Made by a program: the position numbers and the translations under genes. Positions 2,010-49,271 of a stretch of 64,000 nucleotides of DNA are shown here, one piece after another. Origin of the DNA: Candidatus Poribacteria bacterium (lineage in GTDB: Bacteria; Poribacteria; WGA-4E; WGA-3G); assembly GCA_965116815.1 (NCBI GenBank), contig OZ220722.1:1695050-1759049 (forward strand), read 5' to 3'. How positions within the stretch are numbered: the first letter of the stretch is position 1; each line of letters starts with the position of its first letter. Under the pieces are notes generated by a model. That model searched no databases. It was not told where the DNA came from and saw only the letters and a list, made by a program, of their open reading frames with translations.

Positions 2010-5000
2010 CTATTCTTCTCCAAGCGAGATGTGAAATATTCCACGATCTTTGATAGCACTATAGAGTTTATCGTTAATGACAGCAAGAGCAGCAGTTTCA
2101 CCGAGTGCTTCTGAAGAAACTTGCTTCCATTGATTACCGGTATCCAAGCGATAGACTCCAGCATTACCAGCACCATAAACTGTAGGACCCTCCACAGCAA
2201 ATCTGTCTATAATGGGACGTGTACTCGCACTATCGGTTAGCACGCGCCAGTGTGCGCCAGTTTCTGAACTCAACACGCCTTCGTCTGTTGCGACATAAAC
2301 TGTTGAATCAGCAAAGGTTATCTCCTTGAAATGGGTAAAATGAAGCGGTAGACTTGGTGTAACATCTCTCCAGCTGCTCCCTCCATCAAGCGACTGAAAC
2401 AGCTTACCATCGCGTTTTCCGACGTAGATGGTTTCTCCCGAAACCGCTAATTTGAGATCCTGGCTGTCGTTGTCATAAGATTCTTGGCTCATGTCTGTTA
2501 ATCCTGTGCTTATCCACTCCGGGGCACCAAGTCTCCACTTAAAAAGTGTACGTCTGTGCTCAGCGTAGAACACATCGTTACAAACTACGATCATTCTGGT
2601 TGTCGCCTCCTTCCCACGTATAGGAGGTGGAACGATTGATACGACTGCGTGATGTTCTTTTTTAGAACCCTCAGATAAGTGAGTCTTTTTCGCTGCCTCG
2701 CTATCTGCTCGTAACTTACGAGATAATGCTTTATCATCAGAAGCGGGTATGCCTTGAATGGGACTGTGTATATTGCCATCTATAGATACGCGGGAAATTT
2801 GCAAGTTGTTAGTTTCAGGTGAGATAAGATAAAGATTATTGTCATCAACTACCAATTTTGAATTAAAGTAGTGGGAGATACGCGCTCTGTCGGGTTTTAA
2901 TGATTCGGTCGTAATTGTAGTCACCTCCCCAGTAAACCTCTCGGTAATTGAGAACTTTTTCCAAGACGCACCTTCGTCAGTTGATTGATACACCGCATAA
3001 CCATTATGCGCGTATAATCTATTGTTGAACGTAACTAAATCCTTCAACCTTGTTCCAGCCATCCCATCTATAAGTAACTGCCACGATTTCCCGCCATCAG
3101 TTGTGCGACGAATCCCAAAGGGATTAACTTGGTAAAATGTCGTCTCGTTTACAGCCACAACTGGAAGCCTATTGATCATGAACAGATTCCCATCTCCTGA
3201 AAGCTCTGTCCAAGTTTTTCCGTTATCTGTTGAACGATGGCGTTGGTCGGCAGTTGACGCTAAAAGCACTTCACCAACAGCCGAAATCTTCATGCCAGAT
3301 GGTATGTATCGATCATAAGATTTATAACTGGGTGTTATTTCCGTCCATGATGCTCCTAAGTTAGCCGAATGGAAAATTTTGAGAGTATGCGACTCATTTC
3401 TTGGCACTTCTTGGTCTACCGTTATTGGCGTGAATCCCAACAGATCGGGCCCTGTCCCGATATAGAGATTATTCTCAGACACCGCCAAGGAGTAAATGGC
3501 TCTTGATGTCTCCACTGGCAACTTTTTCCAAATACCTAAATCGAGACGATAGAGACCGCGCCCTGTACCAGCAAACACTGTGTTTTGAACAGCAGCGACT
3601 GTGGAAATCGTTTTGTTTGCCAATCCATCATTAAATAGGTTCCATTGTGTCCCACCGTCTGTAGATCGATAAATTCCTTTATCTCTAAGGGCAAGATACA
3701 TCGTGGAATGGGCTTGCGAGTAGGGACGAGGTGACCTCGCCCCTACTTCATCAATGATGATGAGACCGACAGCTTGTCCCTTTGGTCTGGGACCAATCGT
3801 CCTCCAAGTTTCACCGCTATCATCCGAAGTAAATATTTCATCGGTGGATACTATGTAAAGGATATCACCGTGTTCTGCCATCGGCATTAGCGATTTACCA
3901 ATTGGAATATCTGTGTTGACGCTTGTCCACGCGGTTGCATCTGTTCTTAGTCTGTATATTCCTGTCGGAGCAATAGTATAGACGGTACCTTCGGATGTCG
4001 CGAAGATATCGCGTACCTGTCCCCCTGGCGGCGCGTTTCCCTGCGTCCACTGCGAAGTAGAAAACTTGGCGGAGTCCTCCAATGTAGCAGATGTTGTGGT
4101 AGTTGTAGAGACTTGTGTGCCAGTTCCGCTGCTTTTACCCGCAGCAGCCTGTCCACCTCGGTTTCGCACAGCTGGTTTCACCGCAATATCAAGAGTGATA
4201 GGTGTGTCAATGATTTCAATGGTAGGTTCGGATTGTGCTTCAAAACTGTATGGTCTCTGAAAACGAGCAAGGTATTGGCTGCTCGCGCCGAGCAGCAATA
4301 TGACCAAAGCTACAGCCGTGCCGAAAGCCGCCCACGGTAGCAAGGGTTTGCCAACCGGAGGCTGTATCGGTTTCATATTAGCCACTTCCCGCATGATACG
4401 CTCAGTTACTTGAGCAGGGAACGGGATACTTCCAAGTGTTTCGCGAACCAAAAGTTCTTCTTGCTGTTCCTGTAAACGCTCGCGTCCCCGGCGAAGTCGA
4501 CTCTTAATCGTATTCACCGACACCCCTAAGAGTTTCCCGATCTCCTTCGCCGTCATCTCTCCGAGATAGTGGAGCGTTACCACTGTGCGCTCACTTTCCG
4601 GCAGCTTTGCCAGAAGTTTTTTGACGAGTTCATGGCGATGTTCGGTGCTCTCTGTCAGCCGTTGTTCCGATACGTAATGTGTGTAAGAAGATTCTTCGAT
4701 TTCTTCCACAGGCGTGTCCTCCAACGATTGCATCACAGATTTGTTCTTTATGTTCTTTTCGAGCCATTTAAGGCAGAGTCGATTGGCGATGACATACATC
4801 CATCCGGAGAACTGCTTTGGATTCCTGAGCTGCGCAAGATTCTTATATACTTGAAGGAAAGTATCTTGCGTAATCTCTTCGGCAACATGAAAATCGCCAA
4901 CTTTTCGCCACGCAAGCGCGTGAATACCTTTCTGATGCTTTCGGACTAAGGCATTGAACGCTGCGTCATCACCGGACAAGATTTTACGAATTAGTTGAAC

Positions 5001-5018
5001 ATCGTCTTTTGTTTCCAT
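2010..5018 (-). CDS. ECF sigma-70 factor (regions 2 and 4) fused via one TM helix to a large extracytoplasmic BNR/Asp-box beta-propeller domain
   Basis: From the ATG at 5018 (METKDDVQLIRKIL...). Sigma-2 motif FNALVRKHQKGIHALAWRKVGDFHVAEEITQDTFLQVY and sigma-4 ESERTVVTLHYLGEMTAKEIGKLLGVSVNTIKSRLRRGRERL. Hydrophobic segment LLPWAAFGTAVALVILLLGASSQYLA. Then repeated SxDxGxTW boxes (STDGGTQW, STDNGKTW, TTDGGKSW, STDEGASW, SLDGGSSW). Confidence 0.8.
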   Translation of the reverse strand: METKDDVQLIRKILSGDDAAFNALVRKHQKGIHALAWRKVGDFHVAEEITQDTFLQVYKNLAQLRNPKQFSGWMYVIANRLCLKWLEKNIKNKSVMQSLEDTPVEEIEESSYTHYVSEQRLTESTEHRHELVKKLLAKLPESERTVVTLHYLGEMTAKEIGKLLGVSVNTIKSRLRRGRERLQEQQEELLVRETLGSIPFPAQVTERIMREVANMKPIQPPVGKPLLPWAAFGTAVALVILLLGASSQYLARFQRPYSFEAQSEPTIEIIDTPITLDIAVKPAVRNRGGQAAAGKSSGTGTQVSTTTTTSATLEDSAKFSTSQWTQGNAPPGGQVRDIFATSEGTVYTIAPTGIYRLRTDATAWTSVNTDIPIGKSLMPMAEHGDILYIVSTDEIFTSDDSGETWRTIGPRPKGQAVGLIIIDEVGARSPRPYSQAHSTMYLALRDKGIYRSTDGGTQWNLFNDGLANKTISTVAAVQNTVFAGTGRGLYRLDLGIWKKLPVETSRAIYSLAVSENNLYIGTGPDLLGFTPITVDQEVPRNESHTLKIFHSANLGASWTEITPSYKSYDRYIPSGMKISAVGEVLLASTADQRHRSTDNGKTWTELSGDGNLFMINRLPVVAVNETTFYQVNPFGIRRTTDGGKSWQLLIDGMAGTRLKDLVTFNNRLYAHNGYAVYQSTDEGASWKKFSITERFTGEVTTITTESLKPDRARISHYFNSKLVVDDNNLYLISPETNNLQISRVSIDGNIHSPIQGIPASDDKALSRKLRADSEAAKKTHLSEGSKKEHHAVVSIVPPPIRGKEATTRMIVVCNDVFYAEHRRTLFKWRLGAPEWISTGLTDMSQESYDNDSQDLKLAVSGETIYVGKRDGKLFQSLDGGSSWRDVTPSLPLHFTHFKEITFADSTVYVATDEGVLSSETGAHWRVLTDSASTRPIIDRFAVEGPTVYGAGNAGVYRLDTGNQWKQVSSEALGETAALAVINDKLYSAIKDRGIFHISLGEE

Positions 5019-5496
5019 CAGAAAGAATACTCCGTGATTATGTTCCGCCGAGTTTGGACGGATACAGCAATAAATAGACAAGTTCTCTCAATATCAAGTT
5101 GCTTCCGTATTGGAGAGTATACCAAACACAACGCTAAAATAAAACCCATAAATTTGAAACATCACTTTGCCGTTCTATAATTAAAGATACTATTTTGAGA
5201 CGGAAAGGGTGCATAACCTGAAATAAATTGAATTTTTCGACTGAAAAGCCGCAATTTTAAGCAAGGCTTACGCTAATTCTTTGCTTCTGGTATTTGCTTA
5301 GACAGCACTCAGAGAAGCGTGTGGCGCGTAAGCCTCACAATATTGATGGAACAGAATAGCCAAAGAGGTCTATCACTTTGTCCTATAGAGAAGGGGCGAA
5401 GACCCCTTTCTTACATTCTACTTTGGTTTCTCAGGAGGCGTTAGTTCCTGAGGAGGAGTCGGCTCTTTGAGGTGTTCTAAAGCCGCTTGTGTACCC

Positions 5497-5994
5497 TCAA
5501 TTGGTGCGTTCAATTTCTACCAACTTATCAATGTAAGCCGCTTTGTACGTTTCCCAGTCATCTGTCGGCGGAATATCAAAAACGCCTGACTGCCACAGAT
5601 TCGGATTGTCTTCCAGAAGTGCCAAAGCATGCCGATGTAACAGGGTGGACGCATACTCGTAGAAGTTTCCTATGATGATGCCTCTCTCCAAAAGCATCTG
5701 AAGCCACTCTGCTCGTGGATACCTTGCATCTATCTTACTTATTGTAAGGTTACTGCTATAGCTTTCAATTTCTGTTCCGTTGCCCTTGCGCGATAGGCTT
5801 ACTTCGGTTTTTGCATGTCCCGTATTGTAATCCGCATCTAACTCCTTCATCAGTTCTTGGGCATTTTGGGAACCGGTATATTTCTTGTCACTGGACCGCA
5901 TACTCGGTGATATAATTTCAAGTTCAGTGGTTGTCATTGAAGATGTACCGGATACCGAACGTACACAGAACCGCATACTCAAAGTACTTTCCAT
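5497..5994 (-). CDS. Hypothetical protein; short paralogue of 8336..9187 (conserved DARYPRAEWLQ..PPTDDWETYKAAYI C-domain), lacks a signal peptide
   Basis: The ORF's C-terminal ~90 aa align to the 8336..9187 product. GGAGA lies upstream of the ATG. A conserved leader hairpin precedes it. Confidence 0.5.
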   Translation of the reverse strand: MESTLSMRFCVRSVSGTSSMTTTELEIISPSMRSSDKKYTGSQNAQELMKELDADYNTGHAKTEVSLSRKGNGTEIESYSSNLTISKIDARYPRAEWLQMLLERGIIIGNFYEYASTLLHRHALALLEDNPNLWQSGVFDIPPTDDWETYKAAYIDKLVEIERTN

Positions 5995-8335: not shown

Positions 8336-9187
8336 CTAATTTGGCTCGTCAGGAGGAAGTGGTTCCTGAGGATGCATCGGTTCTTCGGAGCGTTCTAAAG
8401 CCTCTTGTGCGCGCGCAATCTGTTTCCTTGCATGCTCAAGTTGCTTCCTGACATGCTCAAGCTGCTGTGAATTCAACGCTTTATGTTCAAGTTGAGTCAT
8501 AGCGCGCACAATTGATTCCTTACTGCGTTTAAGGGCAAGTTTAATTTGCTCTCTACTACGTTCAATCTGTTTCCCAGTGTGCTTACTTACCAACTTATTG
8601 ATGTAAGCGGCTTTATAAGTTTCCCAATCATCTGTTGGTGGAATACCGCGAAACCCTGCCTCATACAAATCTGGATTGTCTTCCAAGAGTACCAAAAGGT
8701 AACGCTTTGATAGCAAGGACGCATACTCGTCGGAGTTATCTATGGTGATGCCTTTATCCAAAAGCAGCTGAAGCCATTCCGCTCGTGGATATCTCGCATC
8801 TATCTCACTTATTGTGAGGTCGCTGCTATAAGTCGTAGTTCTTGGCCGTTCCAATATCTCCCCGTTGCGAATCACTAAGCTGCCATCGGATATAATCACT
8901 TTGGTCTCTGGTAGTTTCTTTGACAGTCCCTTATTGTAATCCACATTTAACGCTTTCATCAATTCCCGCGCGTTTTGAGGACCGATGTACCTTTTATAAT
9001 TGGATGACACTGTCGAAGTGAATTCAATGGATTCACTTTTTACCTGTGTCTTCGACGATCCAGTTTCGGAACTTTGTGTATATGCATAGGTGCCTCCCCA
9101 CAAAAGGATGGCGAGTCCTAAAGTTGCGAAGAATGGAAGTCTTGCGAGAGTTTTTCCGCAGTGAAAAATGCGTTTCATTTTTAGCAT
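8336..9187 (-). CDS. Secreted hypothetical protein with C-terminal coiled coil (long paralogue of 5497..5994)
   Basis: Signal peptide MLKMKRIFHCGKTLARLPFFATLGLAILLWGG. Shares the conserved central domain with 5497..5994. The C-terminus has heptad repeats (EHVRKQLEHARKQIARAQEALERSEE). Confidence 0.6.
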   Translation of the reverse strand: MLKMKRIFHCGKTLARLPFFATLGLAILLWGGTYAYTQSSETGSSKTQVKSESIEFTSTVSSNYKRYIGPQNARELMKALNVDYNKGLSKKLPETKVIISDGSLVIRNGEILERPRTTTYSSDLTISEIDARYPRAEWLQLLLDKGITIDNSDEYASLLSKRYLLVLLEDNPDLYEAGFRGIPPTDDWETYKAAYINKLVSKHTGKQIERSREQIKLALKRSKESIVRAMTQLEHKALNSQQLEHVRKQLEHARKQIARAQEALERSEEPMHPQEPLPPDEPN

Positions 9188-9306: not shown

Positions 9307-10728
9307 TCAAATATCGGAACGGAAGAATTTCAGGAATGCCACGGTTGTCAATACCACAGCAAAGAAGCAGAGCAGCAGCACATCCACCGCCGATTGACGG
9401 AACGTCTCTCCTAAAGTCGTTATCTCCAAAGATGGTGGTTGTGTAATTTTGACTCGTCTGCTTTGTCTGCTATAAGCATGATCTATAATTTTACTGAACA
9501 AATCTGTATAGAGCATCTCATAATAGCGATCACCTGTTTGAAAATAGGTGCTTCTTTTTGCCTTTCCAGTCTGTGTCAAGTTTGTAGAGATATAAATTAA
9601 GGAAGATGTCGGTGTGAGTCGAGAAAGCATCTGCCCCACCTGTTCTTGCCGTTCAGTTTCACGTTTATGATTCCGATCCAATTTGTTAGAATGGTTCTGG
9701 AATCTTGATCTATATTCCGCTTCAAGAGGTTTCATACGTTCATTAATTTTTTTCGAAATCTCCCCGCCTATAGATCTGCGTCCCTTCTCATCGGGCGGGA
9801 CTTCCATGATCATTTTCTGTTTTTCCTCTTCGAGTGCTGCGTTGAAATCGTCTCGCATGGCTGTTTTTTCCATATAGACACTCTGTGCAGTCTGTGTTGG
9901 TGCGATAAATTTGGCAGCAAGGAACCCAACGCGTGGCGTGATCAATACCGCAAACACCCAGACGGTAAAGGCAACGATGAGTGCCGTTTTAGAATTGTCT
10001 AAGTAGGTGGAAATCACCGTGCCGATTGCAAAAAAGACTCCAATATAAAGCAACGAGATGAGGATTAAACTGAGAACTCTCGGAAAAATTTCAGGTTCGC
10101 CGAGAGGGAACCCTTGCCAGACAAGCATCAGTAAGCCGAAAAGCAACGACACCAAGAATGGAACGACAAACACCGCGTATCCGCCAATCAATTTGCTCCA
10201 TAAAAATAGGTCGCGCGGCAGGGAATTCGCTAAGGTGATCCGAAGGGTGCCCGCTTCTCGTTCCCCGGCAACGGCATCGAACGTAAACAGTAGGGCAAGG
10301 AGACTAAAAACAGTACCGACTATGAATAGAAAATCAAGATGCCCTAACAGATTGGAAAGAGAGGAAACCAAGGCGGGTGCCCCTTGTGTAATCCCATTAC
10401 GTGTCATGCCGAGATAGCTCGGCAACGTATCTGCTAACCCATTTGCGAAGACGCTCAAAGGGGTCGGTTTGAGGATAAGTTTGGAAACCTCCAGTTCTGG
10501 ATCCAGTGGCATCCCTGGATTCATTGTGGTTTCTTCAATGTTTGTAAGTTTAACGGCTTCTTGGTAATCCACTAAGTTCTGGCGATAATTTCGGTAATTT
10601 GTAGAAAGTGTCAGCGGGACGAGAAGGAGGCACATCAAAAGAAGCGCGACGAAACGGACGCTCAGAATATGATGCATAATCTCTTTTTGAATCATAGTCA
10701 TTAACATTTGAATTTTCCTTTCACTCAC
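9307..10728 (-). CDS. ABC-2 family transporter permease-like membrane protein (paralogue 2)
   Basis: Same architecture and GEREAGTLR motif as 6897..8312. Confidence 0.6.
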   Translation of the reverse strand: MSERKIQMLMTMIQKEIMHHILSVRFVALLLMCLLLVPLTLSTNYRNYRQNLVDYQEAVKLTNIEETTMNPGMPLDPELEVSKLILKPTPLSVFANGLADTLPSYLGMTRNGITQGAPALVSSLSNLLGHLDFLFIVGTVFSLLALLFTFDAVAGEREAGTLRITLANSLPRDLFLWSKLIGGYAVFVVPFLVSLLFGLLMLVWQGFPLGEPEIFPRVLSLILISLLYIGVFFAIGTVISTYLDNSKTALIVAFTVWVFAVLITPRVGFLAAKFIAPTQTAQSVYMEKTAMRDDFNAALEEEKQKMIMEVPPDEKGRRSIGGEISKKINERMKPLEAEYRSRFQNHSNKLDRNHKRETERQEQVGQMLSRLTPTSSLIYISTNLTQTGKAKRSTYFQTGDRYYEMLYTDLFSKIIDHAYSRQSRRVKITQPPSLEITTLGETFRQSAVDVLLLCFFAVVLTTVAFLKFFRSDI

Positions 10729-10932
10729 TGATATTGAGGATTGCGTTTTTTCAAACTAATTTCGGTGAAGTGGTGTCTGTTTCCCTTTTATAATTAAGGA
10801 TACGGGTTTGGAGGGGAAAGGGTGCATAAAACGAAAAAACTGGATTTTCATCTCAGAAATTGTAAAAATGTTGAAATTGTTGGGTGGCTTTGAGAGGTGG
10901 CAATTGCTGATAATCAAATGTTATGTAAACGA

Positions 10933-10985
10933 AAAAAATCGTGCGGAGAACTATGTGTGTTTTACATGTCTCCGCACGATATTTA
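10933..10985 (-). terminator. Rho-independent (bidirectional) terminator downstream of the BNR lipoprotein gene
   Basis: Perfect 12-bp stem ATCGTGCGGAGA/TCTCCGCACGAT with a ~20-nt loop. It is flanked by an A-run on one side and a T-run on the other. Confidence 0.75.
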
Positions 10986-11012: not shown

Positions 11013-14000
11013 TCAACGCTTGGGACGACGTAGCACAACGCCTCCCTGTCCAGCGACCCATAACGTCTCTCCATCTTTGACACGCGTGATGGTATACAGG
11101 TCATTGTCAATGCCGGTATGCTCCCGTTTCCACGTTTCACCGCCATCTGTTGAATGAATGATAGCACCAGCGGCACCGACGGCATAGATTTCCTGTTCAG
11201 AGAGTGCCAAAATATCGTAAAGCGTTTCCGACATACCGCTCAACTTTGACTCCCAAGTGAATCCGCCATCAGATGTGGATAGGATAATCCCGGCGCGTCC
11301 GACAGCCCATCCCTGTCTTTTCGTGATGAATGACACACCGTAAAGGTCGTAACCTGCGTATGTCTCATGGAATTTCCAATATTCGCCACCGTTGACGGTT
11401 CGCTGGATGACCCCATTGGTTCCAACCGCCCAACCGAGCGGTGCAAATTTCATATCAATACCTGTGAGGTTTCTACCCGTTGAGGTGCGCTGAAATTCCC
11501 AAATCGGACCGCCATCCAGGTTGTGAAGAATATCTCCATTTTCACCGACAGCCCATCCTTCGGAAAAATTGCCAAAGGCAACCTCATTTATGGAGATGTC
11601 AAAGCCTGGTGGCAGCTCCTGCGCGTTTTCTGTTGACCAGTCCTCACCGTCTGCGGTGTAAAGCATACCGCCATCGCGTTTCATCGCCCAGCCCCATTTC
11701 GGATCAAGACTGATGAAGTGGACATTAACGATGCGGTCCGTGGTACCACTCTCCAAACGCTCCCAATTTTTTCCACCGTCCTCTGTTGACAGCAGGACTC
11801 CGTTATCTCCGGCAATCCAACCGTTTTGCTCGTCGAGAAATATCACATCTCGGAAGTTATCGGGTGCTTCACCAAATTGGTGGTGCCAGGTCTTGCCGCT
11901 ATCTGTGGTGGCGTAAATCTGGCCCCCGGATTTTTGTGCCGTCTCAGTCCCACCCGAGTCGGCTCGATACACGTGCCCTTCATGAATCCGCTCCGCACCG
12001 ACAGCCCAACCGTGCCCATCTGCCAGGAAATAGGCGTTGGTAATTTGGGTCAAGAGTGGGTCGGCTTGTTCGAGTGCCATTCTATCTACCCAACTTGTGG
12101 GTTCGCTGTTCTCAGTTTCGCCTCTGGACGAAGTATGGAGTGGCTTCCAGTTTTTACCTTGGTTCTGTGTGGTGAGAATCGCCCCACCGATACCAATTCC
12201 CCACGCTTCGGCGTGATTTCGGAATTTCACGGTCTGCAGCTGGATATTCAAATACGTTCCTTTAATCTCTCGTTCTGCTTCCAGATCCCGTTTCCAACTC
12301 TCTCCGCCGTCTGTGGTAAACAGCGATGTCCCGTTCTCCATCACCGCCCAACCCGATGTAGCATCCATGAAATGGACACCGATACAACGGTTATGGGTTC
12401 TGGCTTGAATCTCCCAGTAGTCTCCACCGTCAACCGTGTGTAGAATCAATCCGCCAGTCCGCCGTTGGGGGGCAACTGCCCATCCCTCTTTGCTATTAAT
12501 AAAATGCAAGTCCGTAATTGACTGCTGTGTTGCACTGGTTTGCTGAGGGGTCCAAGTTTTACCGCCATCGGTTGTCCGCAGAATTTGTCCCCTATCAACA
12601 CCCAGCCATCCCTGTTTTGGGTTAATGAAGTGGATGGCACGGATACTGCCGTAGGGTCGCGCACCTGAACGCGAAGGTTGCAGGTCTTCGCGAATAATCT
12701 GCCACGTTTTGCCACCGTTTTCGGTGCGTAGTAGTACACCTTGTCCACCAATCCAACCGTGGTTTTCATCGATGAAAACAATGCGCTGTAATTCTTCTGT
12801 CACGCCACTCTGTTGCAGCTGCCATGTCGTGCCACCGTTTGTGGTGTGCAAAATGGTACCGCTACCCCCCACTGCCCAGCCCTCCTGCGCAGATAGGAAG
12901 TAGGTATCGGTGAAATGGGTTTGCAAAGCCCCTTGACGCACGATCTCCCAGTGAGATTCAATCGGTTCAATCGGTTTCTCATCGGTTTCTATATCCTGTG
13001 CAGCAGGCGGCAACTCGGCGATGAACTGCTCCGTGTCCACAGAATAGCGCATCGCAATGCCACCTTCACCCACAAGGAGGATACCATCGGGAGAGAGCGA
13101 GAAACTATAGAGATCGTTGGACGTGCCACTTTTCTGCAACTCCCACGTCACACCTCCATTGATGGTGGTCAGAATGACACCTTCATCGCCGACAATTAAC
13201 CCGTGATTCGCATCGGCAAAGTAGACTTTATTCAGATTTGCCTGCGTTCCACTCCGTTGGAATTTCCATGTTTTTCCGCCATCAAGCGTGTGTAGAATCT
13301 CGCCGAATTGCCCGACCACCCAGCCGGTGTGTTGATCGATAAAGTAAGCGGCGTAGAGTTCGTTGTAGCTGTTGCTGTTCTGTCGTTTCCACGTCAATCC
13401 ACCATCTTGGGTATGAAAGACAATACCGGGCCACCCGACGACCCACCCCTCTGTCTCATTGAGGAAAAAGATGCCTTTAATCATTTCGTGGAAATAGCGT
13501 GGTGCTTGTTGACTCCACGTTTCTCCACCGTCTGTTGTATGAAGCACAGTCCCCAAATCTCCAACGATCCAGCCCTTTTTCGGATTGATGAAATGGAGCG
13601 CATTGAGGGTGTACCACCATCCACTGGTTTGTCGTTCCCATGTCTGACCGGCATCGGTTGTGTGAAGGATAAGTCCGCCATCGCCAACCGCCCAACCTTC
13701 TTTGTCGGTAGCGAAAGATAGATTACGGATGCGATGCCACGTGTCCATCTCAATGTTCGTCCAGGTTTTACCACTGTCGTTACTCGTCGTGATTGTGCCT
13801 TTTTCTCCGACGGCAACCGCCCGGTCAGCATCCGCAAACGCGACACTTTGCAGGTCGTCAGCTGTCGTGCCACTTCTCATGTTCCATGTTACCCCGCCAT
13901 CGGTCGAGTGTAGGAGCGTGCCGTTCCAACCGACTGCCCATGCCTCTTTAGGACTTGTGAAGTGAACCCCCATTAGGTCGTTCTTCGTTGGGGTTTCTGA

Positions 14001-14873
14001 TAATCTCCAATTGTCGCCGCCATCTTCGGTTCGAGTGATAAACCCACCCTGCGCGACTGCTACGCCGTAGTCATCATCAATAAAATGGAAGTCATAGACG
14101 GTTGGACGGACGTGTCCATAAACCGGTGGAAGCCGACTATCTTGTCCTCGCCACTCTGTGCCGCCATCGCTGGTATGAAAGATGCTCCCGTCCGTGCCAC
14201 CACTCCATCCGTTGAAAGGGTTCGTAAAAAATACCGTATGGAGATTGCAAACCGTTGATGTTTGATCTTCTCTCACGAAGTTATCCTGTCCGCGCCAGGT
14301 CTGACCGCCGTCTGTGGTAACAAAGATTTGATTGTAATCTCCAACTGTCCACCCGCGCTGCTTATCCATGAACCAGATACCGCCAAGTCCGAATCCGTCA
14401 ATTGCTTCTTGATGGTGCCATGTTTCTCCACCATTTTGTGTATATAGCAGCCCATTCTGTCCAGCGATCCATCCCGTTTTTGAATTAGTGAAAAAGACAT
14501 CCATAAGCAGCGCATGGGCTTGACGTTTTTGAAGAGTCCAGTGTCGCCCACCATCGTCGGTGATAGCGATTAATCCCTTGTCACCAACTGCCCAGCCGTT
14601 ACGAAGGTTTGTGAAATAAACCGCTTTGAAATCTTCATTTGTATTCACCGTCTGTTTTTCCCAGCTCACACCACCGTCAGCCGTATGGAGAATCCATCCT
14701 TGATGCCCGACAATCCATCCGTGTTTGGCATCTGCAAAGTAGATGTCCGTAAAATGGGTTTGCCAGTCTGCTATGCGAGTAATTTCCTTTTTTACACAAC
14801 CGGTGAACAGAAAAGGCACTCCGAAGAGAATCGCCATCCAAAAGTAAGTGATGTGTTGAAAAATCTTTTTCAT
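11013..14873 (-). CDS. Giant lipoprotein made of ~29 Ycf48-like/BNR (Asp-box) repeats, predicted to form multiple 7-bladed beta-propellers (copy 1)
   Basis: Lipoprotein signal MKKIFQHITYFWMAILFGVPFLFTGC. Repeating GW(A/I)VG..G.IL.T.DGG.TW units occur roughly every 43 aa. GGAGG RBS. Confidence 0.8.
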   Translation of the reverse strand: MKKIFQHITYFWMAILFGVPFLFTGCVKKEITRIADWQTHFTDIYFADAKHGWIVGHQGWILHTADGGVSWEKQTVNTNEDFKAVYFTNLRNGWAVGDKGLIAITDDGGRHWTLQKRQAHALLMDVFFTNSKTGWIAGQNGLLYTQNGGETWHHQEAIDGFGLGGIWFMDKQRGWTVGDYNQIFVTTDGGQTWRGQDNFVREDQTSTVCNLHTVFFTNPFNGWSGGTDGSIFHTSDGGTEWRGQDSRLPPVYGHVRPTVYDFHFIDDDYGVAVAQGGFITRTEDGGDNWRLSETPTKNDLMGVHFTSPKEAWAVGWNGTLLHSTDGGVTWNMRSGTTADDLQSVAFADADRAVAVGEKGTITTSNDSGKTWTNIEMDTWHRIRNLSFATDKEGWAVGDGGLILHTTDAGQTWERQTSGWWYTLNALHFINPKKGWIVGDLGTVLHTTDGGETWSQQAPRYFHEMIKGIFFLNETEGWVVGWPGIVFHTQDGGLTWKRQNSNSYNELYAAYFIDQHTGWVVGQFGEILHTLDGGKTWKFQRSGTQANLNKVYFADANHGLIVGDEGVILTTINGGVTWELQKSGTSNDLYSFSLSPDGILLVGEGGIAMRYSVDTEQFIAELPPAAQDIETDEKPIEPIESHWEIVRQGALQTHFTDTYFLSAQEGWAVGGSGTILHTTNGGTTWQLQQSGVTEELQRIVFIDENHGWIGGQGVLLRTENGGKTWQIIREDLQPSRSGARPYGSIRAIHFINPKQGWLGVDRGQILRTTDGGKTWTPQQTSATQQSITDLHFINSKEGWAVAPQRRTGGLILHTVDGGDYWEIQARTHNRCIGVHFMDATSGWAVMENGTSLFTTDGGESWKRDLEAEREIKGTYLNIQLQTVKFRNHAEAWGIGIGGAILTTQNQGKNWKPLHTSSRGETENSEPTSWVDRMALEQADPLLTQITNAYFLADGHGWAVGAERIHEGHVYRADSGGTETAQKSGGQIYATTDSGKTWHHQFGEAPDNFRDVIFLDEQNGWIAGDNGVLLSTEDGGKNWERLESGTTDRIVNVHFISLDPKWGWAMKRDGGMLYTADGEDWSTENAQELPPGFDISINEVAFGNFSEGWAVGENGDILHNLDGGPIWEFQRTSTGRNLTGIDMKFAPLGWAVGTNGVIQRTVNGGEYWKFHETYAGYDLYGVSFITKRQGWAVGRAGIILSTSDGGFTWESKLSGMSETLYDILALSEQEIYAVGAAGAIIHSTDGGETWKREHTGIDNDLYTITRVKDGETLWVAGQGGVVLRRPKR

Positions 14874-14896
14874 CTGTTTTGCCTCCTTGGGTGATT

Positions 14897-16999
14897 TTAC
14901 TGTGTTCGAGGATTCGGGATTACAACCGGGTCGAGTAATACTGGAGATTTTTGAGAGGGTGAATAAACACCGACTGCAGCACCAGCATCCGTAGCGAACC
15001 AGATTTTACCCTGACTGTCTTCAAATACCGACCAAACGCGGTTGCTCGGTAGACCATCGTCTGTGTTAATGTTTTGGAACGTTTCGCCGTTATACACACT
15101 CACACCAACACCGACTTCAGGGATTGGAATATTATCCTCGGCTTCGTGAACCTCAATCGTTAGGGGTAATTTTTTACTACCTGTGAACCAGAGATTGCCG
15201 TTGGTGTCTCGCAGGATACTCTCAACCTTATTCATTGGAAGTTCTTCGCTTTGTGGAAAGTGAACTAATTCTTTGCCATCGTAGCGACGGATGCCAGTAT
15301 ATTCGTCCCCTACGCCTTCTTGGGTAATCCAGAGATTATTCTGTGCATCAAACTGTAGGTTTGTTATTTGTCCGCTTTGCGACTGTCCCATCTCCCTGAA
15401 AGCGTTTAAATTTACATCAAGGTACCGGAAATCAGACGTTTGGAGGTTGTAATAGGTAATACCGGCGTAGCTGCCAAACCAAAAATTTCCTGCTGTATCC
15501 TGTGCAATCGCTGTAACTTGATTCCACCAATGCGGTAGAACCTCCATCCCTGTGGGTCCATTGAAGATAAGACTGCTAAACTTTTCACCGTCGTAGCGAC
15601 TCACACCTTCATCCGTGGCGAACCAAAGCGTCCCCGTTTTGTCCTCAAACATGTCCTGAATGGGACCGCGGAGGAGTCCATCGGCTCCGGTAAACGTCCG
15701 AAACGCTTGTCCATCATAGCGACTTATACTTTCTAATGGAGTAGGTGTCTGTGTTTTCATCTCCATTTCGTCCTGGACGGTATTAGCGAGTTCGCTTAAT
15801 GGCATATTGATGTATGACATATCTATAAACTTTGGTCTATTCAGCGCATTTGCGAGCATTCCATCCCCAAACCAGAGCATGCCCTGCCGGTCTTCAAAGA
15901 TAAGACCTGTCGTGTTTCGTGATAAGCCATCTTCTGTTGTGAAGGTTTGGAAGTTGTCTCCGTCATAACGTGTGATACCGTCGGCTGTGCCAAACCACAG
16001 CGCACCTTGGCTGTCTTCAAAGATAGTGAGCACAGTATTGGATGCTAAACCATCTGCTTCGGTAATTGTTCTTTCTATAAGAAGTTTGCCGGCATTGCTG
16101 GATGCGGGCTGCATGCCAGCACCCCTGTTCTGACTCGGGTGAGATGTCTGTCCGATCTGATTCCTAACATCGGGTTTAGCATCCGTATCAAGAACGATGT
16201 CGGTATCAATGATTTCAATAGTCGGTTCGGATCTCGCCTCAAGACTATACGGCTTCTGAAAACGGGCAAGATACTGATTACTGGCACCTATCATCAACAG
16301 AATCACGACCGCGGCACTCCCAAGAGCCGCCCACGGTAACACCGGTTTCCCACTCGGAGGAGATACCGGGGTTATATCAGCAACCTCCCGCATGATACGC
16401 GCTGTCAAATCAGCGGATAATTCAACGCCGCCGAGCACTTCACTCACCAAGGGTTCTGACGCTTTTAAACGTTCTCGTCCCCGGCGAAGTCGTCCCTTAA
16501 TTGCACTCACCGACACCCCTAAGTATTTGCTAATTTCCTTAGCTGTCATTTCGCCGAGATAGTGGAGCGTCAGCACTGTGCGTTCGCTCTCTGGGAGCCT
16601 TTTCAAAAGGTTTTTAACGACTTCAGAACGGTGTTCCGCTGCTTCTGTCTCGCGCCGCTCCGACATATAATGTTGATACGAGGATTCCTCTATCTCTACC
16701 ATAGGTGTGTCCTCCAAAGATGGCATCGTGGATTTACGCCTTTTAAGCCAGTTAAGGGCAAGTCGATTTGCTATGACATACAGCCAGCCAGAAAAACATT
16801 TCGGATCCTTTAAAGCCCCGAGTTTTTTGTAGACCTGGATGAAAGTATCTTGCGTGATCTCTTCGGCATGGTGAAAATCACCAATCTTCCGCCAGATGAG
16901 GGCGTGAACACCCTTTTGATGCTTTTCAACTAAGGTGCTGAATGCCGAATCGTCGCCTGACAGAACCCTATAAATCAATTGAACATCGTTTTCTAACAT
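14897..16999 (-). CDS. ECF sigma-70 factor fused via one TM helix to an extracytoplasmic Reg_prop (two-component-regulator propeller) domain
   Basis: The sigma-2/sigma-4 regions are ~75% identical to those of 2010..5018. TM LPWAALGSAAVVILLMIGASNQYLA. Then NTVLTIFEDSQGALWFGTADGITRYDG-type Reg_prop repeats. Confidence 0.8.
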   Translation of the reverse strand: MLENDVQLIYRVLSGDDSAFSTLVEKHQKGVHALIWRKIGDFHHAEEITQDTFIQVYKKLGALKDPKCFSGWLYVIANRLALNWLKRRKSTMPSLEDTPMVEIEESSYQHYMSERRETEAAEHRSEVVKNLLKRLPESERTVLTLHYLGEMTAKEISKYLGVSVSAIKGRLRRGRERLKASEPLVSEVLGGVELSADLTARIMREVADITPVSPPSGKPVLPWAALGSAAVVILLMIGASNQYLARFQKPYSLEARSEPTIEIIDTDIVLDTDAKPDVRNQIGQTSHPSQNRGAGMQPASSNAGKLLIERTITEADGLASNTVLTIFEDSQGALWFGTADGITRYDGDNFQTFTTEDGLSRNTTGLIFEDRQGMLWFGDGMLANALNRPKFIDMSYINMPLSELANTVQDEMEMKTQTPTPLESISRYDGQAFRTFTGADGLLRGPIQDMFEDKTGTLWFATDEGVSRYDGEKFSSLIFNGPTGMEVLPHWWNQVTAIAQDTAGNFWFGSYAGITYYNLQTSDFRYLDVNLNAFREMGQSQSGQITNLQFDAQNNLWITQEGVGDEYTGIRRYDGKELVHFPQSEELPMNKVESILRDTNGNLWFTGSKKLPLTIEVHEAEDNIPIPEVGVGVSVYNGETFQNINTDDGLPSNRVWSVFEDSQGKIWFATDAGAAVGVYSPSQKSPVLLDPVVIPNPRTQ

Positions 17000-17410
17000 C
17001 AGAGAACCTCATAATAAATGAGTAAATCAGCACACATCTACGTTCTCCACAGATTAGATCTGCGGAGATGCCAAATACGCAAACTCTATTTCCAACTTCA
17101 CTTTATATTAAAGACACATTTTTAAAGCGAAAGGGTACATAATTTGAAAAAAATCAAAAAATTACTCAAATTTCCGACCTTACTTTATATTAAAGACACA
17201 TTTTTAAGAGGGAAGGGTACATAATTTAGGCGTTAGGCAAATTGAACAGAGAATCGGAAACCCATTTGCTGAAAATGCCTCGCAGTGAGAGTATTACGTT
17301 GCATATAACCCCCTAAATCCGCCAACCCCCATATCCCCCCTTATCAGGGGGGTAGGGGGACTTTAAGAGGAAATGCGTAAGTCCTAATATAATTTGATGT
17401 CATGCAAACC

Positions 17411-17467
17411 AAAACAAAAATCGCGCGGGGAGCTATGTGTGTTCTACATGCCTCCGCACGATTTTTA
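17411..17467 (-). terminator. Rho-independent (bidirectional) terminator downstream of BNR lipoprotein copy 2
   Basis: Stem AAAAATCGCGCGG / CCTCCGCACGATTTTT with one mismatch. T-run in the minus sense. Homologous to the 10933..10985 terminator. An additional 13-bp perfect inverted repeat (GACCAAGAACTCG...CGAGTTCTTGGTC) at 17489..17541 abuts the stop codon. Confidence 0.7.
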
Positions 17468-17545: not shown

Positions 17546-20500
17546 TTAACGTTTAGGACGACGCAGCACAACGCCTCCCTGTCCAGCGACCCACAGCCTC
17601 TTCCCATCTTTAACACGTGTGATGACATACAGGTCATTGTCAACGCCAGTATGCTCCCGTTTCCACGTTTCACCACCATCTGTCGAATGAATGATGGTTC
17701 CAGCAGCACCGACGGCGTAGATTTCATGTTCAGAGAGTGCCAAAATATCGTAAAGCGTTTCCGACATACCGCTCAACTTTGACTCCCAAGTGAATCCACC
17801 GTCAGTGGTGGATAGGATAATCCCGGCGCGTCCGACTGCCCATCCCTTTCTTTTCGTGGTGAACGACACGCCGTGAAGGTCGTAGCCTGCGTGTGTCTCG
17901 TGGAACTTCCAGTATTCACCGCCGTTGACTGTTCGCTGAATTACGCCGTTGCTCCCAACGGCCCAGCCGAGGGGTGCAAACTTCATATCAACGCTTCTGA
18001 GGTTTTTACCGGTTGAAGTGTGCTGCAATTTCCAGATCGGACCGCCGTCCAGATTGTGGATAATTTCTCCATTTTCACCAACTGCCCATCCCTCAGAGAA
18101 TTTACCAAAAGCAGCTTCATTTATCGAGAGTGGAGGTAGTTGATGCTGGGGAAGATCAGGTAGTTCGCGCTGTGGAAGTTCTTGATTGTTGTCTGTTGAC
18201 CAATCATCGCCATTGGTCGTATAGAGCAGGGTTCCATCCCTTTCCATCGCCCAGCCCCATTTTGGCTCAAGACTGATGAAGTGGACATCGACGATGCGGG
18301 CCATTGTGTTGGTTTGCAACCGCTTCCAATTTATTCCACCGTCCTCTGTTGATAGCAAGGCTCCGTTATCTCCAGCGATCCAACCGTTCTGCTCATTGAG
18401 AAACAGCACATCGCGAAAATTATCAAGCGGTTCACCGAGTTGATGGTGCCAAGTTTTTCCGCCATCTGTCGTGGCGTAAATCTGACCCGTAGATGCCTCT
18501 GCTTCATTGGAGCCACCAATATCAGCCCCGACCGATTCCCTGTCGAAAATTTGTTCTCGACCCACTACCCAACCACGCCCATCCGGTAGAAAATGCGCGT
18601 TGGTAATTTGAATTGAGTATCCAAACGGACGTTCCGCTGCCATTTCTTCTATCCAACTTTCCGAGTCACCATTTTCACTTTCCTGCCCAAACAAGGAATT
18701 CAGTGTTTTCCAACTCTCACCTTGGTTTTGGGTGGTAAGAATCATCTGTCCAGCGTTAATTGCCCAAGCTGTTGCCCAAGCCTCGGTGTGATTGCGGAAT
18801 TTCACCGTAACCAGATGGATATCCAAATTCAATCCTTTAATGTCTCGCCCTGTGTCCAGATCTCGTTTCCAATTCTCTCCACCATCTGTGGTAAGAAGTG
18901 AGGTTCCGTCTTCCATTATCACCCAACCCGATGTGGCATTCAGAAAATGGATACCAATGCAACGCTGATGGGTTGTGGCTTGGATTTGCCAGTAATCACC
19001 GCCATCAACTGTGTGTAGGATAAATCCACCTGTCCGCCGTTGGGGTGCAACTGCCCATCCTTCTTGACTGTTGATGAAATGCAGGTGCGTGATCGGTTGC
19101 TGGGTTGTCCCTGTTTGCTGAAGCGTCCAGGTTATGCCACCATCGTTTGTACGCAGGATCTGCCCTCTATCGACACCGATCCATCCTTCTTTCGGATTGA
19201 TGAAGTGTATCGCACGAATATTGCGAAAGTTTTTCAACCCTTCACGGACAACGTGCCACGTCTCGCCCCCGTTTTCAGTTCGCAGCAGTACGCCTTGACC
19301 GCTAATCCAACCGTGTTTTTTATCAATGAAAACAATCCGTTGTAATTCTTCGGTCACGCTGCTCTGTTGTGTCTGCCATGTCGTGCCACCATCTGTGGTC
19401 CGTAAAATGGTACCGCCGTCACCGACTGTCCACCCTTCCTCTGCAGACAGGAAATAGGTATCGGTGAATTTGGATTGCCAACTTCCTTGACGGACGATTT
19501 CCCAGTGATATTCAATCGGTTCAATCGGTTTCTCATCGGTTTCTATGTCTTGCGCAGCAGGTGGCAACTCGGCAATGAACTGCTCCGTGTCTACAGAGTA
19601 GCGCATCGCAATGCCACCTTCACCCACAAGGAGGATACCATCGGGAGAAAGCGAAAAACTATAGAGATCGTTGGACGTGCCGCTTTTCTGTGATTCCCAC
19701 GTCATTCCACCATTGATGGTGGTTAAAATGACCCCTTCATCACCGACAATTAATCCGTGATTTGCATCGGCAAAGTAGACTTTGTTCAGATGTGCCTGCG
19801 TCCCACTCCGCTGGAATTTCCACGTTTTGCCGCCATCAAGCGTGTGTAGAATCTCACCAAATTGCCCGACCACCCAGCCGGTATGTTGATCGATAAAGTA
19901 AGCAGCGTAGAGTTCGTTATAGCTGTTGCTGTTCTGTCGTTTCCACGTCAATCCACCGTCTTGGGTGTGAAAGACAATACCGGGCCACCCGACGACCCAA
20001 CCCTCTGTCTCATTGAGGAAAAAGATGCCTTTAATCATTTCGTGGAAATAGCGCGGTGCTTGTTGTACCCACGTTTCTCCACCGTCTGTTGTATGGAGCA
20101 CAGTGCCCAAATCTCCAACGATCCAGCCCTTCTGAGGATTGATGAAATGGAGAGCATTGAGAGTATACCACCATCCGCTGGTTTGCCGTTCCCATGTCTG
20201 ACCGGCATCGGTTGTGTGCAGGATAAGTCCGCCGTCGCCAACCGCCCAGCCTTCTTTGTCAGTGACAAAAGATAAGTTCCGAATGCGGTGCCACGTGTCC
20301 ATCTCAATGTTCGTCCAGGTCTTGCCACTGTCGTCACTCGTCGCAATTGTGCCTTTCTCTCCGACGGCAACCGCCCGGTCAGCATCCGCAAACGCGACAC
20401 TCTGCAGATCATCAGCTGTCGTGCCACTTCTCATGTTCCATGTTACCCCGCCATCGGTCGAGTGTAGGAGGGTACCGTTCCAACCGACTGCCCATGCCTC

Positions 20501-21427
20501 TTTAGAAGTCGCAAAATGAACACCCATCAGGTCGTTTTTGGTTTGGTTTTCTGTTAATCTCCAGTTTTCCCCGCCATCTTCGGTCCGAATGATGAACCCG
20601 CCCTGTGCAACCGCCACGCCGTAGTCATCATCAATAAAATGGAAGTCATAGACGGTTGGACGGACATGTCCATAAATCATCGGGAGTCGACTGTATTGGG
20701 TCTGCCATTCTGTTCCACCGTTAGTTGTGTGGAAAATGGTGCCGTCTGTGCCACCGCTCCACCCCTTATAAGGGGTCGCAAAAAATACCGTATGGAGGTT
20801 GCAAACCTCCGATGTATCGTGTTCCGTTCTCGCAAGCTGATCCTGTCTACGCCAAGTTTGGCTACCGTCTGAAGTGACAAAAATCCTGTCGTAATCTCCC
20901 ACGATCCATCCGCGATGCTTGTCTACAAAGTGGATGCCACCGAGTCCGAATTCGCTCGCTTCCTGATGATGCCATGTTTTTCCACCATTTTTTGTTTGTA
21001 ACAGCCCATCCTGACCAGCAATCCAACCGGTCTTTGAGTTGAGGAAAAAGACATCCATAAGCAGCGTGTGCGCTTGATTCCTTTGCAGGGTCCAGTGTCG
21101 TCCACCGTCGTCAGTAATAGCAATTAACCCTTTGTCGCCAACTGCCCAACCGTTACGAAGGTTTGTGAAGTAAACCGCTTTGAAATCCTCATGCGTGTTC
21201 ACTGTCTGTTTTTCCCAACTTACGCCGCCATCAGCCGTATGAAGAATCCATCCCTGATGCCCCACAATCCATCCGTGTTTGGCATCCGCAAAGTAGATGT
21301 CCGTAAAATGGGTTTGCCAGTCCGCTATACGAGTAATCTCTTTTTTCACACAACCGGTGAACAGGAAAGGAATTGCCAAAAGAGTTGCTATTGAAAAACA
21401 AGTGATGTATTGAAAAATCTTTTTCAT
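17546..21427 (-). CDS. Giant Ycf48-like/BNR-repeat lipoprotein (copy 2, ~90% identical to 11013..14873)
   Basis: Start at the ATG at 21427 (MKKIFQYITCFSIATLLAIPFLFTGC) with an AGGAGA RBS. The ORF track gives 17546..21451. Long stretches are >90% identical to copy 1 at the nucleotide level. Confidence 0.8.
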   Translation of the reverse strand: MKKIFQYITCFSIATLLAIPFLFTGCVKKEITRIADWQTHFTDIYFADAKHGWIVGHQGWILHTADGGVSWEKQTVNTHEDFKAVYFTNLRNGWAVGDKGLIAITDDGGRHWTLQRNQAHTLLMDVFFLNSKTGWIAGQDGLLQTKNGGKTWHHQEASEFGLGGIHFVDKHRGWIVGDYDRIFVTSDGSQTWRRQDQLARTEHDTSEVCNLHTVFFATPYKGWSGGTDGTIFHTTNGGTEWQTQYSRLPMIYGHVRPTVYDFHFIDDDYGVAVAQGGFIIRTEDGGENWRLTENQTKNDLMGVHFATSKEAWAVGWNGTLLHSTDGGVTWNMRSGTTADDLQSVAFADADRAVAVGEKGTIATSDDSGKTWTNIEMDTWHRIRNLSFVTDKEGWAVGDGGLILHTTDAGQTWERQTSGWWYTLNALHFINPQKGWIVGDLGTVLHTTDGGETWVQQAPRYFHEMIKGIFFLNETEGWVVGWPGIVFHTQDGGLTWKRQNSNSYNELYAAYFIDQHTGWVVGQFGEILHTLDGGKTWKFQRSGTQAHLNKVYFADANHGLIVGDEGVILTTINGGMTWESQKSGTSNDLYSFSLSPDGILLVGEGGIAMRYSVDTEQFIAELPPAAQDIETDEKPIEPIEYHWEIVRQGSWQSKFTDTYFLSAEEGWTVGDGGTILRTTDGGTTWQTQQSSVTEELQRIVFIDKKHGWISGQGVLLRTENGGETWHVVREGLKNFRNIRAIHFINPKEGWIGVDRGQILRTNDGGITWTLQQTGTTQQPITHLHFINSQEGWAVAPQRRTGGFILHTVDGGDYWQIQATTHQRCIGIHFLNATSGWVIMEDGTSLLTTDGGENWKRDLDTGRDIKGLNLDIHLVTVKFRNHTEAWATAWAINAGQMILTTQNQGESWKTLNSLFGQESENGDSESWIEEMAAERPFGYSIQITNAHFLPDGRGWVVGREQIFDRESVGADIGGSNEAEASTGQIYATTDGGKTWHHQLGEPLDNFRDVLFLNEQNGWIAGDNGALLSTEDGGINWKRLQTNTMARIVDVHFISLEPKWGWAMERDGTLLYTTNGDDWSTDNNQELPQRELPDLPQHQLPPLSINEAAFGKFSEGWAVGENGEIIHNLDGGPIWKLQHTSTGKNLRSVDMKFAPLGWAVGSNGVIQRTVNGGEYWKFHETHAGYDLHGVSFTTKRKGWAVGRAGIILSTTDGGFTWESKLSGMSETLYDILALSEHEIYAVGAAGTIIHSTDGGETWKREHTGVDNDLYVITRVKDGKRLWVAGQGGVVLRRPKR

Positions 21428-21505
21428 CTGTTTTGTCTCCTTTAGTAGCAATCAGCAAAGACGCAAACGTTTAGGATCGTTTCTTTTTTTACGGGCAGCC
21501 GACGG

Positions 21506-22732: not shown

Positions 22733-22961
22733 TGAAAAACTCCTTCTCTCGGAAATATGGAAGCATTCTAATTTTTGGATTTTTGCTATCCCGAAATGTG
22801 TCGTCCATTTGATGTAAGTGGGGTTCAGAATCAGTTGTAGTTCCAGTATGACCGAAAGCAAGGTAACTGATACCGAGTAGTAACAAACAGACAAGAAGTA
22901 GGTTAATTATTACAAAGCGCATTTTCTCTTTCCTTATTTAAAGTTAAGAATTACGCTGAAC

Positions 22962-49198: not shown

Positions 49199-49271
49199 TC
49201 CCCCATAGCTCAGTCGGTAGAGCAGATGGCTGTTAACCATCGTGTCGGCGGTTCGAGTCCGTCTGGGGGAG
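49199..49271 (+). tRNA. tRNA-Asn (anticodon GTT)
   Basis: Acceptor stem TCCCCCA/TGGGGGA. D-arm GCTCAGTCGGTAGAGC. Anticodon loop CTGTTAA. T-arm GGCGGTTCGAGTCCGTC. No encoded CCA. Confidence 0.9.

Follow-up and report, generated by a model that had tools for sequence, protein, structure and literature searches.

A repeated element of Candidatus Poribacteria that reads as a probable ECF-class promoter of membrane-anchored sigma-fusion genes and their neighbours

Genes for sigma factors of the extracytoplasmic function (ECF) type are usually autoregulated (PMC7826278). In promoters of the SigW type, tGAAACnTTTt ... CGTA, a T-tract directly follows the -35 box; a -35-proximal T-tract is also found in the promoters of ECF01, ECF30 and ECF31, and ECF spacers are 14-17 bp long (PMC5758882). 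Sigma/anti-sigma fusions such as IutY of Pseudomonas putida (ECF243) and the members of ECF48, ECF52 and ECF53 are thought, or have been shown, to be released by regulated proteolysis, and in SCO4117, from the actinobacterial ECF48/52/53 groups, the outer part includes a carbohydrate-binding domain (PMC8999054). Here we describe an element that occurs four times in a stretch of 64,000 nucleotides (called the window below) from a Candidatus Poribacteria bacterium (assembly GCA_965116815.1, contig OZ220722.1, positions 1,695,050 to 1,759,049), upstream of two genes encoding sigma factors fused to a membrane segment and a beta-propeller, and of an operon that begins with an ABC-2 family permease gene. 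With a probability of about 0.8, we read this element as the minus-strand, ECF-class promoter of a family of single-pass membrane-anchored ECF sigma factors which has greatly expanded in Candidatus Poribacteria.

The element is ordinary in kind, since ECF sigma genes usually regulate themselves. The sigma-fusion family and its promoter would be a new instance of this textbook kind, and one that is apparently undescribed in the searchable literature. In the literature searched, no promoters are described for the uncultured phylum Poribacteria, nothing relevant was found on a Poribacteria ECF sigma, sigma factor or anti-sigma factor, and no propeller-fused transmembrane ECF sigma factors were found. 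The paper on the re-classification of ECF sigma factors does not mention the Poribacteria (PMC7826278).

All genes of the window from 2010 to 23780 are on the minus strand, including the two sigma-fusion genes:

2010-5018, minus strand: clade-A sigma-fusion gene, with ECF sigma regions 2 and 4, a hydrophobic segment at residues ~224-253 and a BNR/Sortilin beta-propeller (Pfam, NCBIfam, hydropathy)
14897-16999, minus strand: clade-B sigma-fusion gene, with ECF sigma regions 2 and 4, a hydrophobic segment at residues ~218-241 and a Reg_prop propeller

Each of the two fusions has a single hydrophobic window (Kyte-Doolittle 2.2, residues 218-253), and region 4 is separated from the membrane segment by only ~40 residues. 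A look-up of the 700-amino-acid protein (14897-16999) by its exact sequence returned no record. The zinc-binding anti-sigma motif HxxxCxxC is absent between sigma domain and membrane in both, with one cysteine in the first 300 residues. The closest sigma factor of solved structure is SigW of Bacillus subtilis (5wuq, E 6.6e-24). The NCBIfam SigW models give ~96-110 bits against cut-offs of 209-243, and the sigma domain is therefore not a SigW orthologue. For the conserved N-terminal 284 residues there are 1331 database relatives. The best 120 of them are 59-74% identical and have varied C-terminal domains (Kelch, Sortilin, Reg_prop, LRR), and the top homologues are annotated as Candidatus Poribacteria. 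A scan of species-representative genomes gave at least 572 confirmed family members. For comparison, the best 80 loci were taken (L numbers below denote related loci); they were chosen only for their homologous sigma domain, all are from Poribacteria, and there are up to four of them per chromosome.

When this locus is set beside the sigma-W (ECF01) system of B. subtilis, the likeness is in the layout: two boxes, a -35-proximal T-tract, a -10 box of the CGTA type, and a position in front of both the sigma gene itself and nearby target genes. The differences are in the -35 box, which is TGCACC or TGTACC in the Poribacteria and TGAAAC for sigma-W, and in additional invariant blocks of the Poribacteria motif (an upstream ATTA, an AAAA within the spacer, and TC-TTAA following CGTA). 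The proteins also differ: in the Poribacteria, a membrane segment and a sensor domain are part of the sigma polypeptide itself, and for SigW the anti-sigma factor, RsiW, is a protein of its own. With IutY and the ECF48/52/53 proteins the fusions share the order of parts in one polypeptide, namely ECF core, transmembrane segment and extracytoplasmic domain. They lack the HxxxCxxC zinc-finger anti-sigma domain described for ECF48/52/53, their outer domains are beta-propellers (BNR/Sortilin, Reg_prop, Kelch) or other repeats such as LRR, and they belong to another phylum, where the family exists in hundreds of copies. A functional analogy can be drawn to Clostridium thermocellum, which has multiple SigI/RsgI pairs that are autoregulated, have extracellular sensors of the carbohydrate-binding type and use related but distinguishable promoter boxes. 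The analogy goes no further than function, as SigI is not of the ECF type, RsgI is a separate protein, and the promoter sequences are unrelated to the Poribacteria motif.

The four copies of the element are these:

5179-5217, minus strand: copy 1, with -35 box TGCACC at 5208-5213 and -10 box AGTATC at 5186-5191, spacer 16
10792-10830, minus strand: copy 2, with -35 box TGCACC at 10821-10826 and -10 box CGTATC at 10799-10804, spacer 16
17105-17143, minus strand: copy 3, the proximal one of a tandem pair, with -35 box TGTACC at 17134-17139 and -10 box TGTGTC at 17113-17118, spacer 15
17187-17225, minus strand: copy 4, the distal one of the tandem pair, with -35 box TGTACC at 17216-17221 and -10 box TGTGTC at 17195-17200, spacing 15

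On the minus strand they read TTATGCACCCTTTCCGTCTCAAAATAGTATCTTTAATTATAG (copy 1), TTATGCACCCTTTCCCCTCCAAACCCGTATCCTTAATTATAA (copy 2), TTATGTACCCTTTCGCTTTAAAAATGTGTCTTTAATATAAAG (copy 3) and TTATGTACCCTTCCCTCTTAAAAATGTGTCTTTAATATAAAG (copy 4). The core AAGGGTRCATAA has four exact occurrences in the window (at 5205, 10818, 17131 and 17213), where shuffled sequence leads one to expect 0.57; a count of four was reached in none of 100 shuffles. Copies 1 and 2 match the full gapped pattern exactly (expected: 0). For scanning, 19 sites of the related loci, none of them contributed by the window, were combined into a position weight matrix (PWM). With it, copies 1 to 4 reach 56.7, 45.0, 22.3 and 21.4 bits, each on the minus strand; 20 shuffles of the 64-kb window, scanned in both directions, gave 13.2 bits at most. 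A scan of the window itself finds nothing but these four minus-strand copies and, at 24194-24232, a weak fifth site. The tandem pair formed by copies 3 and 4, with a distance of 82 nt, is also found in the orthologous locus L001. When the four regions are aligned together, they have only a block of 40-45 nt in common, and the flanks are not alignable.

The preliminary description of this DNA, made from the sequence alone, had listed four copies, placed each of them upstream of a minus-strand gene and taken the last two for a tandem duplication. All of this agrees with the counts and scores just given, with the coordinates now refined. The description had also pointed to a consensus TATAAT hexamer, which only the first two copies contain. 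In the tandem pair the hexamer reads TATATT, and the element is shorter by one base at two places.

The minus-strand consensus is ATTATG(C/T)ACCCTT(T/C)C-N-AAAA-N-(C/A/T)GT(A/G)TC-TTTAAT. It opens with an A/T-rich edge; then come a -35 box within ATTATGCAC(CC), a TTT, a spacer that closes with AAAA, the -10 box (C/T)GT(A/G)TC and, as A/T-rich predicted start region, TTTAAT(T)ATA. In the window, the boxes follow the pattern TG(C/T)ACC, CTT(T/C), spacer, (C/A/T)GT(A/G)TC, the spacing being 16 nt for the first two copies and 15 nt for the tandem pair. This gives two classes, TGCACC-N16-(C/A)GTATC for copies 1 and 2 and TGTACC-N15-TGTGTC for copies 3 and 4, which match the two sigma clades present in the window. 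A logo made from 64 unique sites has four near-invariant blocks: ATTATGCAC (positions 0-8), TTT (11-13), AAAA (21-24) and TC-TTAA (30-36). The TTT, which forms the -35-proximal T-tract, is present in 60-63 of the 64 sites. Little information is contained in positions 9-10 and 26-29, that is, two positions in the -35 box and four in the -10 box.

An ECF promoter would be expected to have a -35 box of the AAC type and a -10 box of the CGT type, some 14-17 bp apart. The logo does show a pair of conserved blocks with constant spacing, but the agreement is ambiguous: read as TGCACC-N16-CGTA they fit, with a C for an A in the -35 box, and the spacing becomes 18 nt if the alignment is made on the CGTC of the sister clades, which in other genomes have TGAACC...TCGTC in the same register. 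The longer form TGCACC-CTTT-N12-CGTATC fits the SigW-type template, with C for A at two -35 positions. It had been remarked earlier that the element does not match an ECF pattern. On the minus strand the sequence comes close to the sigma-W type tGAAACnTTTt...CGTA; the remark arose because the wrong strand was read.

Two other promoter types were considered for the minus strand. A sigma-54 promoter (TGGCAC-N5-TTGC, compared with ATGCAC-CCTTT-CCGC) was rejected by inspection, the positions of the -12 box being variable. A sigma-70 promoter with TTTAAT or TAATTA as -10 box was rejected as well, given the misfit at A2 and T6 and the lack of conservation in the -35 box that it would imply.

The relation of the motif to genes is almost uniform in the 80 related loci. 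Scanning them with the PWM gave 71 sites above 12 bits, 70 of which are on the gene strand; above 18 bits there are 68 sites, all but one of them (67) on the gene strand. Nearly all sites above 14 bits have a same-strand open reading frame starting 3-371 nt downstream, and many are only 40-90 nt from the start codon. The reading frames after the sites are family sigma genes or neighbours of these, which encode proteins of exported and transport types (Laminin_G_3, Kelch, PD40, 3-keto-disaccharide-hydrolase-like, peptidase M16-like, ABC-2 permease). A site above 12 bits lies within 450 nt upstream of 42 of the 82 sigma genes, and for ~15 further sigma genes it precedes a co-directional gene located before them. 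A metagenome scan with the strict motif gave seven stretches, about five of which look genuine, including a clade-A sigma gene in L086; these are too few to define a regulon.

The variable positions of the motif follow the tree of the sigma domains, with each clade having its own combination:

Clade A (gene 2010-5018 and 10 orthologues): CACCC ... (C/A)GTATC
Clade B (gene 14897-16999, L001-L003, L005-L008 and L020): CACCC or TACCC ... TGTGTC
Other clades (various members): CACGT ... CGTATC; CACGT ... (A/G)CGTC; GAACC(C/T) ... TCGTC

The TGTGTC variant of copy 3 is common to all of clade B. Over the six variable positions, sites agree at 4.56 positions within a locus and at 2.90 between loci; the within-locus figure was reached in none of 10,000 resamplings. 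Copies 1 and 2 agree at five of the six, and for the tandem pair the agreement with these two copies falls to two of six. Since the variable positions of copy 2 agree with copy 1 and not with copies 3 and 4, copy 2 belongs with the sigma gene 2010-5018. ABC-2 genes and clade-A sigma genes that each have a site of their own are also found together in L022, L024 and L051, and in L024 both sites have the rare variant CATATC. Across 42 sigma/promoter pairs, the protein column that has most mutual information with the variable -35 dinucleotide is K172 (numbering of 2010-5018), in the recognition helix of region 4; this link is confounded by phylogeny and is suggestive only.

Conservation has an edge at the element. 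Among the 10 orthologues of 2010-5018, which are in other Poribacteria genomes and have the copy-1 element ~200 nt upstream of the gene, it runs from a few bases upstream of ATTATGCAC through a leader of ~160 nt to the start codon. On the far side of copy 1 (250 nt, toward the hairpin discussed below) the orthologues do not align. The same is seen for the tandem pair. L001 contains the orthologue of 14897-16999 (88% protein identity in the sigma region), and here both sites and the leader are ~90% identical to the window, with similarity ending just beyond copy 4. The block is kept even where the sigma proteins are only 60-70% identical and the surrounding intergenic DNA cannot be aligned.

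The clade-A leader (5019-5178) is itself conserved across 11 genomes and contains a further promoter-like feature:

5116-5126, minus strand: extended -10-like box TTTGGTATACT (TGn-TATACT), invariant in 11 of 11 orthologous clade-A leaders

From its sequence, this box is a candidate for a second promoter of the clade-A sigma gene, of the housekeeping type. The conserved stretch may be a second promoter, a regulatory leader, or both. Two other features of it are the repeat GTTTCA-N9-GTTTCA and a possible stem, ACCGCTG...CGGCGG; in RNAalifold the conserved clade-A leader gave no covariation (term +0.07; one compensatory pair of 36). In the clade-B leader there is an inverted repeat, CTCCGCAGATCTAATCTGTGGAG, at ~17035-17057 on the minus strand, which is kept in L001 at ~2440-2465.

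Upstream of the copies, toward the preceding genes, lie the hairpins with which the element had originally been paired:

10932-10985, minus strand: intrinsic terminator of the BNR gene ending at 11013 (-28.0 kcal/mol, z -6.8; 12-bp G+C-rich stem, U7)
17411-17467, minus strand: intrinsic terminator of the BNR gene ending at 17546 (-26.9 kcal/mol, z -3.3; UUUUUGUUUU, U5GU4, after the stem)
5389-5420, no strand assigned: weak 6-bp GC hairpin (z -0.13 on the minus and -0.06 on the plus strand), like shuffled sequence

The two strong hairpins are found ~30 and ~80 nt past the stops at 11013 and 17546, have the better U-tracts in the minus sense, and are homologous through a segmental duplication. 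The strong folds, the minus-sense U-tracts after stop codons and the duplication together make them terminators of the preceding BNR genes. The order of terminator, promoter and next gene explains why motif and hairpin seem to go together. Thus, of the pairing with twin terminators described earlier, two strong hairpins remain; the third is weak, and the pairing is incidental. The weak hairpin may be the terminator of the gene 5497-5994, which lies upstream of it. A G/C-capped palindrome, CCCCC(T)TATCAGGGGG, which looks like a repeat of the repetitive extragenic palindromic (REP) type, is found in the window at 17338-17350 and 20763-20775, one copy being inserted between the terminator and copy 4. 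It is intergenic in 10 of 87 Poribacteria loci, and forms tandem arrays with a period of ~47 nt in L035:5497-5602 and L040:5744-5853.

The motif is real and strand-specific; it lies upstream of genes, is kept in places where its flanks have changed, and varies with the sigma clade. Orientation, position, the edge of conservation and the tracking of clades all support the first of two readings originally offered, that of a shared and possibly autoregulated promoter of the sigma-fusion genes. The second was that the TATAAT is the -10 box of a plus-strand promoter of the sigma-70 type, making intergenic or antisense RNAs of 170-240 nt which end at the hairpins. At copy 1 the plus strand indeed has a near-consensus TTGAAA-N16-TATAAT, the hairpin 17411-17467 has a U5 run in the plus sense too, and 5389-5420 has a T-rich tail on the plus side. 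We nevertheless consider this reading very improbable. A plus-strand -35 box exists at copy 1 only, copies 3 and 4 having TATATT and no -35 box, and the most informative logo positions (TGCAC, TTT, AAAA, TC) fall outside the plus-strand boxes. The stretch from motif to hairpin shows no conservation, either in a comparison of 11 orthologous loci or when the window is compared with L001, whereas the gene side is conserved; 67 of 68 sites are co-oriented with the downstream gene; and the two strong hairpins directly follow minus-strand stops, with U-tracts that serve the minus sense better. An Rfam search of the whole window returned only a tRNA (49199-49271) and nothing between motifs and hairpins, so that the putative small RNA stretch has no Rfam match. 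It is harder still to believe that the copies are passive, functionless remnants of duplicated DNA, left by a segmental duplication or a mobile repeat. There is a large segmental duplication in the region (11013-16999 and 17546-22894), copies 3 and 4 are a tandem duplication, and REP-like palindromes are nearby. Against this, the flanks of the four copies cannot be aligned and the 40-45-nt block alone can, the block is kept in genomes in which sigma identity has fallen to 60-70% and the intergenic DNA around it is no longer alignable, and strand and position relative to genes are almost invariant.

The remaining alternative is that the block is an operator of a separate regulator, or the site of one shared master sigma factor or activator, and overlaps a promoter, so that the neighbouring fused sigma factors would not each read their own site. 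This is unlikely, though there are arguments for it: ~45 nt are conserved, ATTATGCAC, AAAA and TC-TTAA are invariant across all sigma clades, the extended -10 box TTTGGTATACT of the clade-A leader could be the actual promoter there, and the site is linked to the fused sigma factor by sequence-based reasoning. Yet neither the sequences nor the logo show, on inspection, any dyad or direct-repeat symmetry in the site, and the two-box layout, the T-tract and the CGTA/CGTC -10 box are of the ECF promoter type (PMC5758882). The variable positions follow the clade of the adjacent sigma gene and are shared within loci, and in the DNA examined the sites co-occur with the sigma-fusion family. A second promoter would also not fit into the 40-90 nt which in many cases separate the site from the start codon.

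Several points count against the ECF promoter itself. The -35 box has a C where typical ECF promoters have an A (CAC/ACC, not AAC). The register is ambiguous, with either N16 to CGTA, as in SigW, or N18 to the invariant TC, which is beyond the 14-17 bp known for ECF spacers (PMC5758882). Conservation over ~45 nt, including the AAAA of the spacer and the TTTAAT after the -10 box, exceeds what a minimal ECF promoter needs, so that an extra factor could also bind there. About 30% of the family members have no site that this matrix recognises. For the -10 box, mutual information gave no clear signal in the loop where it is expected, and the clade-specific variants could come partly from shared descent and not from co-evolution with the sigma factor. 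Finally, the promoter function of every copy is deduced from sequence and comparison.

If the element is an ECF promoter, the fused sigma domains would presumably be what recognises it, and the polymerase would begin a few bases past the -10 box (5-8 nt is what one expects of an ECF promoter) and proceed into the gene that follows; the exact start and the exact box register are predictions, with the start of copy 1 placed near 5179 and its leader at ~160 nt. Copy 1 would drive the sigma gene 2010-5018, copy 2 the five-gene ABC-2 operon, as part of the regulon of the sigma gene 2010-5018 downstream, and the tandem copies 3 and 4 would drive 14897-16999 together with 11013-14873. Copies 1, 3 and 4, which stand before the two sigma-fusion genes, would then provide positive autoregulation. 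A signal received at the outer propeller could lead to regulated proteolysis, and the sigma domain freed by it would transcribe its own gene and the neighbouring ones; release from the membrane in this way is suggested by analogy with the known fusions.

This analysis settles the strand of the repeat and gives it a probable role on the gene side, and it removes the unsupported reading as a source of small RNAs. With the promoter model, a scaffold with six variable positions, regulons can be predicted for the individual membrane-anchored sigma factors of the Poribacteria. A wider and more tentative idea, which we would sooner offer than defend, is that the hundreds of one-polypeptide transmembrane sigma factors across the phylum, several per chromosome, share the scaffold ATTATGCAC-TTT-AAAA-TC-TTAA, that some six positions set which paralogue pairs with which promoter, and that these insulated pairs wire varied sensors (BNR/Sortilin, Reg_prop, Kelch, LRR) to small local regulons. 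If it is true that the variable positions encode specificity, the family would amount to a natural stock of insulated sigma/promoter pairs, ready for use, and would also offer a way into what sponge-associated Poribacteria sense at their surface; these symbionts could use the sigma/promoter set to sense glycans of the host or the environment.

The gene that directly follows copy 2 is the first of the ABC-2 operon, which comprises this gene and four further minus-strand genes down to 5497:

9307-10728, minus strand: ABC-2 family permease gene (Pfam PF12679, E 8e-32), the first gene downstream of copy 2

Judging from the sequence, its start is more likely the ATG at 10707, which has AAGGAAAA as a ribosome-binding site. 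No ATPase gene was recognised in the operon. Two of its reading frames, 5497-5994 and 8336-9187 (both on the minus strand), are paralogous, with 79% nucleotide identity over 243 nt, and have no match in Pfam or NCBIfam.

The gene 11013-14873 encodes a BNR protein of 1286 amino acids, begins 23 nt after 14897-16999 and is probably in one operon with it. This gene and 17546-21451 are large neighbour genes for BNR-repeat proteins of ~1300 amino acids. The segmental duplication to which they belong (11013-16999 and 17546-22894) has 73-91% nucleotide identity between its two copies. The Reg_prop gene of the second copy, 21506-22894, lacks the sigma and membrane part and begins instead with an N-terminus that resembles a signal peptide (MRKRSHAMWLAMFLLL...); its product would therefore be a paralogue of the sigma fusion's sensor domain that is secreted.

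A related site farther upstream was missed in the preliminary description:

24194-24232, minus strand: fifth ECF-type site, with boxes GGCAACC...CGCGTC (ATTAGGCAACCCTTTCG...CCGCGTCATTATATAG); PWM score 6.3 bits, weak when taken alone

It lies ~410 nt upstream of the Laminin_G_3 gene 22962-23780 and comes just after a terminator-like hairpin at 24263-24285. Nearly the same sequence is found at L014:1280-1320, again upstream of a Laminin_G_3 gene (86% protein identity). The sigma specificity of this site is probably different from that of the four copies. Between the site and the conserved leader, the window has an insertion of ~140 nt which contains a palindromic repeat, GCTGGCGAGGATTGTATCCTCGCC (~24106-24130, minus strand). 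This repeat also occurs in L001 (~2225-2250) and in the upstream regions of L044 and L050, in unrelated intergenic regions of several genomes.

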